Shown here: in pieces, positions 1 through 43,445 of the stretch
Layout of the letters: every line of letters begins with the position of its first letter
How positions within the stretch are numbered: position 1 is the first letter of the stretch
The notes under the pieces: model-generated
What the model was told of the DNA's origin: nothing
Seen by the model: the letters and a program-made list of their open reading frames with translations, nothing else
Databases searched by the model: none
Translations under genes and position numbers: made by a program
IMG/VR virus record: IMGVR_UViG_3300029305_005547
Location: 96,001-160,000 of that record
Origin: a virus
Taxonomy: Duplodnaviria; Caudoviricetes
Length of the DNA stretch: 64,000 bases
Direction: 5' to 3' (one strand)

Positions 1-105
1 GGATCACTATCCGAATTATATGACCAACTTTTAGATGAAGAAGAAGCATATATCAAATCTCAATTAGATTCGCGAAACTACATGAATGACATGGACGGAA
101 TTTAG
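1..105 (+). CDS. 3' end of an upstream gene (partial); its stop codon lies inside repeat copy 1
   Basis: Frame 1 is open: GSLSELYDQLLDEEEAYIKSQLDSRNYMNDMDGI*, with TAG at 103-105 inside ACGGAATTTAG. Confidence 0.6.
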   Translation, partial: GSLSELYDQLLDEEEAYIKSQLDSRNYMNDMDGI

Positions 106-175
106 TTAAGTAAAATTTCTGTAAGTCTCGATATTTCTCGAGACTTACAGATTCTTTATTTAGCTAAATTAGTAA
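95..175 (+). repeat. 80-bp cassette repeat, copy 1 (extra T in core: CTAAATTAGTAA)
   Basis: Direct match to the other nine copies. Confidence 0.97.
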
Positions 176-3707: not shown

Positions 3708-3801
3708 TAGAAATAGGAGATGATTTTGTTTCATCTCCTATTTATTTTTTGTGGAAAATGCAACAAAAAATTCGACAAAATTCGACATTTACTTAGATAT
3801 G

Positions 3802-5033: not shown

Positions 5034-5076
5034 TAATGGTTAGTTATAAAGATAAATGCGAGTAAGGGAATTTCCC

Positions 5077-22769: not shown

Positions 22770-22849
22770 ACGGAATTTAGTTAAGTAAAATTTCTGTAAG
22801 TCTCGATATTTCTCGAGACTTACAGATTTCTTATTTAGCTAAATAGTAA
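22770..22849 (+). repeat. 80-bp cassette repeat, copy 4
   Basis: Direct match. Confidence 0.97.
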
Positions 22850-23499: not shown

Positions 23500-24402
23500 A
23501 TGGCTATTAAAGTTGGAAATACTACTATACCAACTACAGAAGGTAGTTTAAAAGTTGGATCTACTAAAATAACTAAAGTTAATGTGGTGAAAGATGGAGT
23601 AACAACAACTGTATGGCAAGTTTCTAGTTTTTCATCTAAAGAATTTAATTATACAGGAGGAGTACAAGCGTTTACTGTACCTGTTACAGGTACATACCTT
23701 CTTGAAGTTAAGGGTGCACGAGGCGGTCATGTAACTAACCATATTGCAGGTGGTTTTGGAGGATATGCTAAAGGATATGCAAATCTTACAGCAGGTCAAA
23801 CTATATATGTCTGTGTGGGTGGACAAGGAACAGATTGTAGTCAAAGAGGTAGTGAAATAAACACTCAGCCAATAACTTACCCTGGTGGATATAATGGTGG
23901 TGCTAATGCACCTACAGTATTATATTATAATGGAAGTGGAGGAGGATGTACTCATATAGGTACATTCAACTCAACGTTAGCTGATCATGGATCTACAAAC
24001 GGATTATTTATTGTAGCTGGTGGTGGAGGAGGCGCTTCATATCACGATGATACGCATTATGGTGTTGGTGGTACTGGTGGTGGAACTACTGGTGGAAATG
24101 GAACCGTTATAGGAGATTATGTTTCAGATGATTACTTTTCATATGGAACTGGCGGTACACAAACTGCCGGTGGTTATAATGATATAGGTGAAACCCCTGA
24201 CCTATATAGAGGATTTTTCGGAAAAGCTAATAGTGATATCCATAATTCTGCTGGTGGCGGAGGCGGATTATATGGTGGTGGTCCTGGTGGAGGATGGTCT
24301 GGAGCTGGTGGTGGTTCTGGATATATAGGAGGAGTCACATCAGGTTCTATGGAAAATGGTGTTCGAGATGGAAATGGTTGGGCTAAAATTACATTAGTCT
24401 AA
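23500..24402 (+). CDS. Glycine-rich partner adhesin of cassette 4
   Basis: GGAGG RBS; shared MAI...TTIPT N-terminus; FNYTGGVQAFTVP and many GGGGG runs. Confidence 0.8.
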   Translation: MAIKVGNTTIPTTEGSLKVGSTKITKVNVVKDGVTTTVWQVSSFSSKEFNYTGGVQAFTVPVTGTYLLEVKGARGGHVTNHIAGGFGGYAKGYANLTAGQTIYVCVGGQGTDCSQRGSEINTQPITYPGGYNGGANAPTVLYYNGSGGGCTHIGTFNSTLADHGSTNGLFIVAGGGGGASYHDDTHYGVGGTGGGTTGGNGTVIGDYVSDDYFSYGTGGTQTAGGYNDIGETPDLYRGFFGKANSDIHNSAGGGGGLYGGGPGGGWSGAGGGSGYIGGVTSGSMENGVRDGNGWAKITLV

Positions 24403-29849: not shown

Positions 29850-29885
29850 AAATCAAAGATATTTTATATTTCTAGGTTAGTTATA

Positions 29886-39228: not shown

Positions 39229-39654
39229 ATGGACAATACAATTATAATTAAAAACTTTAATCCTGGTGCTAAAGGATTTAAAGTTATGAGAAAAGAACAA
39301 GAAGGATGTTCTGTATTAGCAGAATTTAAAAGAATACCAGATACAGGAATTGGTGATATGAGTGATGGATACCATACTTTTAATGAATTATATCACCATA
39401 GAGCAATATTATTTTCTGTTATCTGTAATATGTTTAAAGATAAAGCATGGAAATCATTAATGCATCATGATGGTAAGATGTATGATGGTATGTTCATTGT
39501 AGGAATTGAAACACCTAATGGGCAAGCAACATATCATTATGATGTAGATCCTTATTTTGATTTATTTGATGTAAAGGAACTTGAAAATGCTCCGGAATGG
39601 GATGGTCACACACCTGATGAAGCAATTGAAAGAATTAAATCTTTGGTTGTGTAG
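39229..39654 (+). CDS. Conserved phage protein (YHTFNELYHHR type)
   Basis: SDGYHTFNELYHHRAILF...GQATYHY...APEWDGHT; ATG 39229 follows the previous stop. Confidence 0.7.
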   Translation: MDNTIIIKNFNPGAKGFKVMRKEQEGCSVLAEFKRIPDTGIGDMSDGYHTFNELYHHRAILFSVICNMFKDKAWKSLMHHDGKMYDGMFIVGIETPNGQATYHYDVDPYFDLFDVKELENAPEWDGHTPDEAIERIKSLVV

Positions 39655-39680
39655 TATCAGACTATTGAAGTCATGTGGTC

Positions 39681-39698
39681 ACGGAATTTAGTTAAGTA
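39681..39698 (+). repeat. Left 18 bp of the cassette repeat (half-site upstream of the expressed fibre)
   Basis: ACGGAATTTAGTTAAGTA is identical to repeat positions 1-18, then the sequence diverges. Confidence 0.9.
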
Positions 39699-39846
39699 TT
39701 CTAAACAAAACCCAAAAAGTTAAGTAACTTAAAAAAAATTATATTTAATCGATAAAATAACAAAAAAAGTAAGGGTAGTTACAGCTACCCTTACTTGAAT
39801 ATTCCAAGATTGGCTTGTATGAGCATTTTGACCTCTTGTTTTCTAG

Positions 39847-40017
39847 TTAGAACAACTGATCAGACAATGCCTGAATCAAAGCCATTCTAACTGAGAAAAT
39901 GTTGGCATATCTGTTTGGATCAGACTGCCAAGCTGTCATGAAACTAGCATCGGTATCAAAACCGTTTGCTAGTTTCATTTCGTTGTATAACTTTCTCAAG
40001 TTATCAATATAACTCAT
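39847..40017 (-). CDS. 56-aa hypothetical protein between the two half-sites
   Basis: AAGGAGG RBS before ATG 40017; TATATTATT promoter; terminator 39768-39796. Confidence 0.7.
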   Translation of the reverse strand: MSYIDNLRKLYNEMKLANGFDTDASFMTAWQSDPNRYANIFSVRMALIQALSDQLF

Positions 40018-40120
40018 GTTAAAACCTCCTTCCTTAGAATATTCATGATAATAATATATCATCGAAAATATAAGGATTTCAGAGATTTTTTTACACATCT
40101 ACACAGCTTTCTAATATAAA

Positions 40121-40134
40121 AACATTCTACTAAG
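40121..40134 (+). promoter_or_regulatory. Late-type promoter of the tail-fibre gene
   Basis: AACA-TTCTAC-TAAG; the same ACA-N6-TAA spacing recurs upstream of more than 15 genes. Confidence 0.7.
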
Positions 40135-40209
40135 TAATTACCATAGAGAAATCTATGGGTCTCAATTATTTTTTCATGAAAGAATAATAGAAAAGGAGGC
40201 GCTCGAGAT

Positions 40210-42090
40210 ATGGCGACTACAAGAAAACATATTGAGATGACCCGCATTGATTCAAGCGGTAATCAGGATATATTATATCCAAAGAATACACTCGCCGATG
40301 TCCACACAAGTTCGACATCCGGCGTTACAATTGAAGGAAAGGTAATGTTCTACGGTACTTGTTCTACAGCCGCTGCAACAGCTGCAAAAGTAGCTTCTGC
40401 AACAGGTTTTGTTCTTAAGGCAGGTGCTCATGTTACCGTTAAATTTACAAATGCTATTACTGTAGCAAGTGCTACATTGAACGTAAATAGTACAGGTGCA
40501 AAGGCAATTCATTACGAAGGTGCAGCTTTAAAGGCTAACGTTATTCGTGCTGGCGCTTCTGTTGAGTTCGTTTACGATGGTACTAATTACCTCGTAGTTG
40601 CAGGTGTAAATCCTGCATATGTTGAAAATAAGAATACCACTAAGTTCTACTTACTTGGTACTCCTAATAATGCAGCAGGAATGCCTTCTGCTGAATATTT
40701 TGATACTGGTGTTTATGTAAGTACAACATCAGGTCAGTTAGTTGCAACATCATTCTCTGGTAATGGTTCTGCATTAACAAACTTAAATGCAAGTAATGTT
40801 AAAAGTGGTACATTAGCAGCTGAAAGACTTGCTACATCTGGCGCAACAGCAGGTTCATATGGATCTTCTGCAGATGCAACTGTAGCAGATTCAGGATCAT
40901 TCACTGTGCCTTATGTAACAGTAGATGCATATGGTCGTGTAACAGCAATTAAAAACGTTACTCTTACATTGACAAGTGATGCTAACTCTGATACAAAAGT
41001 TACAAATACCTTGAATACTACAGCTAAAGCTTATATTACAGGTACTACTTCTGCAACAACAAATACTGGTACTCAGGTATTTGATACTGGTGTTTACCTT
41101 GATACAACTGCAGGAAGACTTACTTCCAGCTCTTTACTTACCGGTACATGTTATTTAGGAAGTTCAACTTCTAACTACATTAACGGTACAAACTATACCG
41201 GAACTGCTGCAAAAGTTGGTACACTTTCTGGTTGGTTGATAGATAGTTGTGCTTCTGCAAGTGCTAACGGAGTAACCAATAAGGCGCTTACAGCAAACCA
41301 GGGCTATTTGTTGCAAAATCAGATTGATACACTAAATAGTAATATGAGTAGTTATTTACCTTTATCAGGTGGAACATTAACTGGTACATTAACAAGTAGA
41401 AATGTAACACCTAGTGCTAATGTATCATATTCATTAGGTTCGACAACAAGAGTATGGACAAATTCATTTGTTAAAACCATGTATATATATGATGGTACAA
41501 ATACATCATCTAATTGCGGAAGTTTTGCAGTTTCTAATGTAGGTACAACATCTGCAGAAGGAATAGCATATCTAATGGTTGGTAATGCTACTTCGTCAGG
41601 AACAGCTGGAAATTCTACTGGTAGATTGCGTCTTTATAATAAGTGGGGCGGTTATGCTGATATTATACCAACAGTTAATAGAAGAGATAATTATACTTTA
41701 AAATTACCTGGAGAAGCTGGAGTATTAGTGAGTGACAACACGATAAAACATGTTGTTGGTAGTACTAAGACTGGAAAAGTTAGTACAAATGAAATAGCTG
41801 GGTTGATTGGTGTTGGTGGAGTTATACTTTCTATGCAAGTATTTGCCCAGATAAATGGAAGTACTACTATTGTAGTATCAACGGAAATACCAAGGAAATC
41901 TGACGTTTCAAGAATAAGAGCAGGATATTTTCAAAATATGGGGGTTTCTGATTCTAATGGTGGAGCTGTATATTGGGATATAGATCAAAGTTTTAATATA
42001 TCTTTAGCATATGCCTATTTGAATGGTACTGAGTATTCAACTACAACAAAATGGTGGATTGAATATACTTATATTGACATTGTCTCATAA
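40210..42090 (+). CDS. Complete tail fibre (expression locus): 374-aa constant part plus exchangeable tip starting at LNSN
   Basis: AAAGGAGG RBS; Thr/Ala/Gly-rich fibre repeats, PYVTVDAYGRVT motif; CTAAATAGTAA at 41332-41342 in frame. Confidence 0.92.
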   Translation: MATTRKHIEMTRIDSSGNQDILYPKNTLADVHTSSTSGVTIEGKVMFYGTCSTAAATAAKVASATGFVLKAGAHVTVKFTNAITVASATLNVNSTGAKAIHYEGAALKANVIRAGASVEFVYDGTNYLVVAGVNPAYVENKNTTKFYLLGTPNNAAGMPSAEYFDTGVYVSTTSGQLVATSFSGNGSALTNLNASNVKSGTLAAERLATSGATAGSYGSSADATVADSGSFTVPYVTVDAYGRVTAIKNVTLTLTSDANSDTKVTNTLNTTAKAYITGTTSATTNTGTQVFDTGVYLDTTAGRLTSSSLLTGTCYLGSSTSNYINGTNYTGTAAKVGTLSGWLIDSCASASANGVTNKALTANQGYLLQNQIDTLNSNMSSYLPLSGGTLTGTLTSRNVTPSANVSYSLGSTTRVWTNSFVKTMYIYDGTNTSSNCGSFAVSNVGTTSAEGIAYLMVGNATSSGTAGNSTGRLRLYNKWGGYADIIPTVNRRDNYTLKLPGEAGVLVSDNTIKHVVGSTKTGKVSTNEIAGLIGVGGVILSMQVFAQINGSTTIVVSTEIPRKSDVSRIRAGYFQNMGVSDSNGGAVYWDIDQSFNISLAYAYLNGTEYSTTTKWWIEYTYIDIVS

Positions 42091-42225
42091 TCTATCTAGA
42101 TGATCCATGACTGAAAAGTTAATTACAGAATAAAAAATATGGTATACTATATAGTATACCATATTTTTACTCCGAAAATATCGAGAAAACAAAATATTAA
42201 TGTTGAAAGAAAGGAAATGAAACTC

Positions 42226-42399
42226 ATGAGTATTTTTACAAATTCTGAGAAAAACTTTCTTAGTTCTCTCGGTGATGAAATATTTGTAGAGTCTTCAAAG
42301 TCAGAATGTAAAAAAGTTTTTGATACGGCGTATAAAGTATTGGAAGAACTTGGGTTTACTCCAAATATCGGTAAAAAAGAAAAACTAAAAGTACTATAA
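42226..42399 (+). pseudogene. Apparently truncated late gene (MSIFTNSEK...)
   Basis: Late promoter and AAAGGA RBS, but it stops after 57 codons where the sequence switches to an adhesin-like frame. Confidence 0.45.
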
Positions 42400-42716
42400 A
42401 TACATCAGGAAATCTTATTACATTTAAAGCTCCATGTAAAAATTATAAATATGCTAAAGTTACTCTAGCATATGGTTATTATGCAAATTACGGTGATTTT
42501 AAAATCACTTATACATTACCCGGAGGAAGTACTGTTTCATTAATCGATAAAGCGTATAGTGATGGTCAAAGTGGTGGTATATTAACAAAAACATTTACCA
42601 TAGACACTTCTACATTAGCCAGTGATGATACAAGTACATTTAAAGGAACTCTATATCTATTAAATAGAAGTAGTAATAGTGTATATTGGGGTTTTAATGG
42701 TTGTATTGGAATATAA
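42375..42716 (+). pseudogene. Orphan 3' fragment of an adhesin-like gene
   Basis: Start-less frame TKSTINTSGNLITFKAPCKNYKYAKVTLAYGYY...; followed by TAATGGTTAGTTATA as after cassette 2. Confidence 0.6.
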
Positions 42717-42857
42717 AAAAATTGAATTGACTAACACAGCATAATGGTTAGTTATATTTTTATACAAGAGAAGACAATAAAGTCTTCTCTTGTATTATAT
42801 TTTTATCCATATATTATTATATTAGATAATTCTTAATATAATGAAAGAGGGATAAAA

Positions 42858-43445
42858 ATGAAAATATACATGTTTTATTTTAGAGATAAAGATGTTAATA
42901 GACGATTAGAACCAGTTCTTTATGCATATACGAATAGTAAAGAATTTGCTGAAAGATTTAAAGAATACCGTAATATGGATAAATTTATATGTTATGAAAG
43001 AGAACTTACGAAAGATCAGTTCAAAGACGTAACTAGAACGCATCCATCACAACAACTAACAGAAACAGAATTTGTTACAAAAGATCCAGAATTTCCAACT
43101 AAGAAAATGAATGTAAGTATTGTGTGTACATGGGATGAAGAAAAGGCTGTTATACTTGAAAGTGAAGATAGTGTCTTTAGATTATTTGAAAAACAGATGT
43201 TTGATCCATCTATGTTAAATATGGATATAAAAGGTATATTGTATAAATTTGGATTCTTTACGATATATCAATATTTGTACAATAATATGTACATATATAA
43301 TCCATTAGAAGGGTCTGAATATACTGGTGTGTTCTTTAAAGACGCTATTGCTGGAGACACAATAAGACCAGTTGCTAATATGCAAAATATTCATGCTGAT
43401 CAATTAGCAATGTTCATACATTTATTTGGAGGTACTGTAAAATAA
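42858..43445 (+). CDS. Hypothetical early protein
   Basis: TATATTATT motif, GAGG RBS. Confidence 0.7.
   Translation: MKIYMFYFRDKDVNRRLEPVLYAYTNSKEFAERFKEYRNMDKFICYERELTKDQFKDVTRTHPSQQLTETEFVTKDPEFPTKKMNVSIVCTWDEEKAVILESEDSVFRLFEKQMFDPSMLNMDIKGILYKFGFFTIYQYLYNNMYIYNPLEGSEYTGVFFKDAIAGDTIRPVANMQNIHADQLAMFIHLFGGTVK

Follow-up and report, generated by a model that had tools for sequence, protein, structure and literature searches.

The stretch of DNA immediately behind the expressed fibre tip of this phage raises the question of how two truncated genes came to be joined there, and whether the tip-switching system that surrounds them made the joint. The source record is a 278,849 bp virus genome of 32% G+C, and the window, meaning the whole 64,000-nucleotide stretch that was analysed, corresponds to its bases 96001-160000; positions refer to the window unless given as genome positions. 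The first-pass annotation regarded 42091-42756 as the possible scar of a past switch, in which either a donor tract had overwritten an earlier two-gene tip or a deletion had fused two loci. The analysis below indicates that the region is a fossil junction which probably arose from an illegitimate join, most simply a deletion of several kb in cis.

An 80-bp hairpin element is present in 18 copies in the genome, on both strands, and 16 of these copies lead into a start-less ORF of 94-457 aa, in frame immediately past TAG; the ORFs behind the elements start with LNS(N/K) and look like tail-fibre tips. The genome holds a single complete fibre gene (40210-42090), which has the same LNSN junction at 41332, and the promoter and 374 codons that make up the fibre's front half form a head module of about 1.6 kb (39681-41342). 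In contig L005, the segments 39600-39698 and 41332-42900, each 100% identical to the window, are joined by a full 80-bp element; additional head-less contigs retain the same gene spacing, and in contigs L001-L003 the head is present and arranged as in the window. Switching is thus the exchange of the promoter-plus-front-half module with a 51-bp hairpin spacer upstream of the tip, with tip and scar unmoved. Because head-less L005 and head-bearing L001-L003 have the same sequence downstream, the tip is resident at its place. Two degenerate copies of the element were also seen, at window 95-174 and at genome 41439-41518 (minus strand); one carries a one-base insertion in the core (CTAAATTAGTA), so that the frame reads LN-stop, and the other has no R half at all. 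The distant relative G002 (an IMG/VR record of 275,512 bp; pieces L015 and L014) has a similar system with other boxes, an L box AACCAATTTTGTTAAGT and an R box CAAAACTGCAAC; its start-less tips open with QNCN, and its fibre junction reads IDE-LNCN.

The locus consists of the following parts:

41332-42090, plus strand: expressed tip of the one-gene type, 252 aa counted from the LNSN core and at present joined to the front half of the fibre; context, outside the scar.
42133-42168, strand unassigned: AT-rich terminator-like hairpin with a 16-pair stem, folding at -17.9 kcal/mol.
42169-42225, plus strand: upstream region (promoter, 5' leader, RBS) of a destroyed large-gene copy, recognised by homology to the upstream region of its paralogue.
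42226-42399, plus strand: 57-codon ORF; its codons 1 to about 51, the stump, derive from the 5' end of a lost paralogue of a 1095-aa gene.
42375-42716, plus strand: start-less 113-codon remnant of a cassette second gene (a putative distal adhesin); its frame is -1 with respect to the 57-codon ORF.
42376-42410, plus strand: junction zone, where resemblance to the large gene gives way to resemblance to the adhesin, with an A6 and an A5 run and the core-like word CTAAAAGTA.
42714-42744, plus strand: second lesion, a premature TAA next to an A7 run, with the ancestral end in the +1 frame.
42742-42756, plus strand: exact match to the 15-mer TAATGGTTAGTTATA, which includes the cassette end box GGTTAGTTATA (42746-42756).
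42762-42795, plus strand: terminator hairpin closing the former two-gene cassette, a 14-pair stem plus T-run at -20.3 kcal/mol.
42801-42821, plus strand: conserved promoter-like box of the next gene, which marks the right edge of the variable slot.
42858-43445: next gene, 195 aa, with the promoter-like box upstream.

The junction is real. Contigs assembled by two pipelines from at least four separate samples carry it in identical form, so that misassembly, which the first-pass annotation had named as an objection, does not account for it; gene spacing is the same in six further contigs. Across 41332-42900, the head-bearing contigs L001-L003 and head-less L005, with its full 80-bp element, are 99.9-100% identical. 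The scar is fixed and independent of the position of the head, and the idea that it records a past switch fails on this point, tip and scar being unchanged between head-bearing and head-less strains. The junction was likewise rejected as a switch product, as its state is constant across switch states and it holds no complete site. Nor is the region one ordinary gene with a single frameshift; its halves are read in different frames and have no family in common, and relatives carry them in separate, unrelated genes. Rfam gave no match in the whole window at gathering thresholds, and a blastn search of INPHARED with 41343-42860 gave none.

The tip itself ends with the stop codon at 42088-42090, and the hairpin at 42133-42168 bears out the terminator that had been placed behind it. 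Only about the first 132 aa of the tip resemble other tips in the genome, which contains no second copy of it (41343-42090). Beyond the shared module the tip continues, just as a one-gene tip of 457 aa does at genome 71310; judged by this layout, the 252-aa tip would be of the one-gene kind and need not be a patched stub. A 248-aa tip query found no relatives in the word-indexed protein search, and IMG/VR scans, from which near-identical records are apparently held back, found none for the tip, the 57-aa ORF, the 195-aa neighbour or the adhesin remnant.

The 57-codon ORF is the broken front of a large gene. It had been annotated as a late gene with a promoter and an RBS that stops after 57 codons; the ATG at 42226, the RBS before it (AAAGGAAAT) and the stop (42397-42399) stand, whereas no sigma-70-like site was scored upstream of 42226. 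Its final five or so codons and the stop derive from junction sequence. The ORF matches the N-terminus of an intact 1095-aa paralogue (genome 92611-95898) at 34 of 55 aa (62% identity, E 1e-15; 68% at the nucleotide level), and the similarity ends at about 42378. Homology extends upstream, 42169-42225 being identical to genome 92550-92610, before the intact gene, at 46 of 61 positions (75%), and the upstream motif occurs at these two loci only, genome-wide. Differences between stump and paralogue fall on codon positions 1/2/3 as 13/6/28, a third-position bias which indicates that the stump comes from a long-diverged gene under protein-level selection and which excludes a decayed recent copy of the surviving gene. 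An exhaustive profile search added P0006 (1300 aa) and P0007 (291 aa), whose extreme N-termini are about 50% identical to the stump. The stump corresponds to residues 1 to about 52 of proteins that are 1095-1515 aa long, and the match ends abruptly at the joint. Five other candidates (P0002-P0005, P0008) were rejected as homologues; these are TPR-type or repeat proteins whose scores were summed over many short stretches.

The intact paralogue carries GNAT acetyltransferase, NUDIX and conserved C-terminal phrog_2921 domains (Pfam, PHROGs), together with a HEIGH zincin-like motif spotted by eye. Immediately upstream of it stand an 80-bp element, a 113-aa tip and a terminator, the whole locus spanning genome 92081-95898. 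The first-pass annotation had looked to a second copy of 41343-42385 preceded by the 80-bp repeat and continuing into an intact MSIFT gene; this expectation was half answered, in that the repeat, a terminator and the intact gene do stand in this order at genome 92081-95898, with another tip and no copy of the resident one. Genes flanking the two large-gene loci are not paralogous, which speaks against a large segmental duplication. The genome has no leftover 3' part of the large gene, the word-indexed protein search with the 57-aa ORF returned no longer relatives, and metagenome scans for an exact stump 23-mer and for the stump protein gave zero matches.

The second half is the end of an adhesin-like gene. 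Its frame opens at 42375, right after the TAA at 42372-42374, ends with the TAA at 42714-42716 and contains no ATG, GTG or TTG start that gives 40 aa or more; the earlier description of a start-less adhesin-like frame was accurate as to the end and the adhesin match, and its opening moves to 42375 from 42384. An open frame of 113 codons has a chance of about 3e-4 at the genome's stop frequency. The remnant is 39% identical over 102 aa (E 1e-11) to a 195-aa second gene (genome 172333-172920, equal to L012:634-1221), and the match is limited to C-terminal residues ~80-186 of that gene, which belongs to the cassette at genome 171783. An intact version of the adhesin, which had been suggested as a thing to look for, is therefore represented by a related gene, but the closest one is only 39% identical. 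Five intact second genes have a common N-terminal module of about 40 aa and variable C-terminal parts; the remnant is without this module, and neither an orphan adhesin 5' part nor an orphan N-terminal module is present in the genome. Pfam and PHROGs gave no match for the stump, the remnant, the tip or the intact second genes, except for the gene at 23500. This gene (23500-24402, cassette at 22770) contains a glycine-rich ALK/LTK-type domain (PF12810, E 1e-23), the sole Pfam match to a second gene. A single-sequence model of the intact adhesin had a mean pLDDT of 59, too poor for a fold search.

A second lesion lies near the 3' end of the remnant. The ancestral C-terminus, LTNTA plus stop, is retained out of frame at 42727-42744, and compared with the intact paralogue all five of its codons show only synonymous, third-position differences. 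The present frame terminates nine codons early, and the ancestral stop abuts the end box. One such further lesion was found in the remnant, whose decay is slight. The one-base frame change near the adhesin 3' end came later and shows that maintenance of the remnant has ceased. Of a two-gene tip cassette, the locus retains no more than the second gene's 3' part, the end box and the terminator; 42091-42756 was accordingly rejected as a member of that class and is a cassette remnant only, the 80-bp site, the stub and a full second gene being missing.

Between the two halves, the breakpoint can be placed only within about 35 bases; the nearest intact adhesin is 39% identical and the nearest large gene 62%. 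The first-pass annotation saw in the switch point a likeness to the core context. The likeness exists, in that ACTAAAAGTA at 42384-42393 is the core minus one T and contains CTAAAAGTA (42385-42393), but near-matches are common: the genome has 95 matches to CTAAATAGTA within one edit, 18 of which are exact, versus about 66 in Markov-simulated genomes. The chance of a core-like match inside a junction zone of about 30 bases is roughly 0.4-1%, for a word that was selected post hoc, and as a piece of sequence the core-like word in the junction is suggestive at most. No L box or hairpin was found near the junction, and a complete recombination site (CTAAATAGTAA core plus boxes) is absent. Across the A-runs, 22 nt are common to the 57-codon ORF and the adhesin frame, and one base added to the A6 run would fuse the two; the overlap contains no X XXY YYZ slippery heptamer in the right phase, and all sampled strains have A6, with no length polymorphism. 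The stump's last codons share a microhomology with the intact adhesin (CAAATA.CGGT.AAA), on which we did not rely, as the paralogues are too distant.

Downstream of the remnant, the markers of a former cassette are in place. The 15-mer TAATGGTTAGTTATA, which had been said to follow the adhesin of cassette 2 as well, occurs exactly at 5034 and 42742 only, and it consists of the end box plus the ancestral stop codon. The end box GGTTAGTTA has 8 occurrences in the genome versus 3.7 expected, 6 of which lie just behind the six second-gene ends, and its consensus, (T)AGGTTAGTTA(T/A)A, is found at window 5038, 24416, 29875, 31117 and 42746 and at genome 172928. A hairpin follows in four of the six cases (42746, 5038, 24416 and genome 172928). 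The end box at 29875 adjoins the next 80-bp element, and TTAGTTA is common to the end box and the L box. It may thus represent a half-site, or else a leftover from the mobilisation of cassettes.

Contig L030 (Logan SRR24653759_4400; 193-1030) is a 67%-identical relative in which the site has collapsed (TTACTTAACTAAATAGTAA) but keeps the exact R core, and in which an unrelated tip of about 243 aa, again start-less, lies flush against the promoter box of the 195-aa gene. The same 21-mer box stands at L030 position 975, right behind this different start-less LNSN tip. From the exact R core and the different tip at the same promoter box, the position can be recognised as a cassette slot with turnover of its content. 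A match to L030 bases 193-218 occurs at window 3770-3795, a very short way upstream of another element. When window 42797-42857 was compared with L010, L008 and L024, synteny was found to break just left of the promoter of the 195-aa gene; in these three contigs the gene follows a block of 1100-, 410-, 70- and 80-aa genes, whose homologues here lie at genome 214297-219356. The more distant relatives G001, G002 and L010 were rejected as carriers of the locus, as their 195-aa gene follows the block that is at 214-219 kb here.

How did the two halves come together? The deletion that was said to have fused two loci is the reading that we favour: the junction unites two truncated genes, and the missing pieces are absent genome-wide. 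Since these pieces are nowhere in the genome, the event was non-reciprocal. The ancestral order would have been tip, terminator, large gene copy B, one or more cassettes ending in stub, adhesin and end box, and the 195-aa gene. A single illegitimate join, from about codon 52 of the large gene to about codon 85 of the adhesin and out of frame, would then have removed the rest of the large gene, the intervening DNA, the 80-bp cassette site, the stub and the first ~85 codons of the adhesin; the loss could have been tolerated because copy A of the large gene existed, and the one-base frame change near the adhesin 3' end would have come later. We infer the lost interval, its size and a course in cis rather than in trans.

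Related phages suggest where the large gene once stood. The intact large gene lies beside homologues of the 514-aa gene and of the small minus-strand gene at 39847-40098 in L031, adjoins a homologue of the 506-aa gene in G002, and adjoins a homologue of the helicase at 32056-33240 in L006; these neighbours are all homologues of genes just left of the present locus. The stump would accordingly mark the large gene's original site, and the event would have been a deletion in cis rather than a recombination with another genome, although rearrangement is extensive in these phage genomes and leaves the positional argument only moderate weight. The small minus-strand ORF (83 aa, 39847-40098) lies inside the head module, and its L031 homologue (40% identity, E 2e-11) is oriented divergently to the intact large gene next to it, and no fibre gene separates the two. 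This arrangement is a hint that the locus of fibre expression originated next to the large gene. Intergenic similarity to L031 may be due to common promoter motifs only. The undeleted arrangement was not found in strains or relatives in the INPHARED, IMG/VR, word-indexed protein and metagenome scans. The open 113-codon remnant and the kept RBS of the stump mean either that the event is young or that some product is still selected.

The main rival to a deletion in cis is the donor tract of the first-pass annotation, in which a gene-conversion-like copy of the 80-bp site, the 252-aa tip, the terminator and the large gene was carried into a resident two-gene cassette, entering on the left by homology at the 80-bp site and ending illegitimately on the right within the adhesin, so that the stub and the adhesin front were replaced. 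A locus of the same layout, with another tip and the intact large gene, does exist at genome 92081-95898, the cassette at genome 171783 contains relatives of both the tip's first ~132 aa (38%) and the adhesin remnant (39%), and the slot varies in content between lineages; a tract from another genome would give the same topology. The genome, however, contains no second copy of the tip or of the large-gene N-terminus, so that an overwrite would require a donor from another phage or one lost since, and the intact gene is only a 62%-identical paralogue with third-position-biased differences. Moreover, the switching that is observed moves the head and not tips, relatives put the large gene in this neighbourhood, and a tip that runs past the shared module like the 457-aa tip at 71310 need not be a patched stub. 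We therefore consider an overwrite in this form unlikely.

The other readings would make the joint something more than a deletion scar. Were it the work of the switch recombinase acting off target, two core-like pseudo-sites would have been joined and CTAAAAGTA left behind; the word one deletion from the CTAAATAGTAA core, at 42385-42393, does fall within the ~35-base junction zone, and in the frame of the 57-codon ORF it has the codon phase of the core in tips. Set against this are the frequency of near-matches (95 observed versus about 66 by chance per genome), the lack of an L box or hairpin nearby, the consideration that a true core join would give a tip start (LNSN...) rather than the middle of an adhesin, and intact paralogues that have no core-like word at the corresponding positions, though they are distant; an off-target event is thus very improbable. 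Slightly less probable still is a living chimera, in which slippage on the A6/A5 runs, by phase variation or in transcription, would yield a single protein of about 160 aa. Both frames are open, the RBS is kept, the frames overlap by 22 nt across the A-runs so that one base added in A6 fuses them, and the better-predicted C-terminal beta-rich part of the adhesin in the low-confidence model (residues ~88-192) roughly coincides with the retained piece. Against it, no canonical in-phase X XXY YYZ heptamer is present, the halves come from unrelated families and lack the N-terminal module of all intact second genes, the last ancestral strand of the remnant has been lost through the second frame change, and the A6 run is invariable in length in the sampled strains. 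That the joint is one or the other, a recombinase footprint on core-like pseudo-sites or a pair of fused frames still expressed as a phase-variable chimera, we hold to be quite improbable. A chimeric junction made by the assembler is an idea that stems solely from the many repeats of the genome and found no support; with the identical junction in at least four samples and two pipelines and the same spacing in six more contigs, its likelihood is negligible.

We favour, then, the deletion in cis, and the scar is an ordinary gene-remnant joint of illegitimate recombination that involves no new mechanism. In the picture of phage mosaicism developed by Hendrix and Hatfull, illegitimate recombination leaves gene remnants at novel joints. 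The present joint is like these in that unrelated genes were cut internally and joined out of frame, with flanking regulatory signals kept, and in that the product is fixed and decaying; unlike typical mosaic joints, it lies inside a switchable library of tail-fibre tips, and one partner keeps a dedicated end box. The lambda G/GT pair is a programmed frameshift gene pair, and it too has overlapping frames with A-rich runs in the overlap; the present locus differs in having no in-phase heptamer, halves unrelated in origin, and a downstream half that is truncated and further damaged. The Rin shufflon of Bifidobacterium prophages and the Rci shufflon of R64 are reportedly switches of tail-fibre or pilus tips, and like shufflons the system around the scar provides alternative C-terminal tips to one N-terminal part via conserved short sites; the scar, unlike shufflon products, is invariant across switch states and its junction has no complete site. 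For T4-type phages, PeSL-mediated modular shuffling is reported, with indels and replacements that cluster in plastic regions rich in small promoter-plus-stem-loop units (Arbiol et al. 2010, PMC2839356). As in those regions, a terminator hairpin and a promoter border each module here (42133-42225 and 42762-42821); unlike the shuffling it describes (PMC2839356), the join here lies inside two coding regions and not between regulatory units.

These results have several consequences for the reading of this phage. The annotation is corrected, in that the 86-aa or 57-aa call is the stump of a gene and the 113-codon frame is the dead end of an adhesin, and a conserved end box marks the 3' edge of two-gene tip cassettes. 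The switch model receives an independent test, tip and downstream sequence staying in place while the promoter-plus-front-half module moves. Were the joint, against our preference, a footprint of the recombinase, it would document, in nature, an off-target deletion caused by a tail-fibre switch of a new kind. Under the favoured history, the phage would formerly have held two diverged copies of the large GNAT/NUDIX gene, and cassettes in the tip library are lost as well as kept. There is also a hint that the fibre gene stands where the large gene stood in relatives, which bears on the origin of the switch system, inside which the scar is a useful historical marker.
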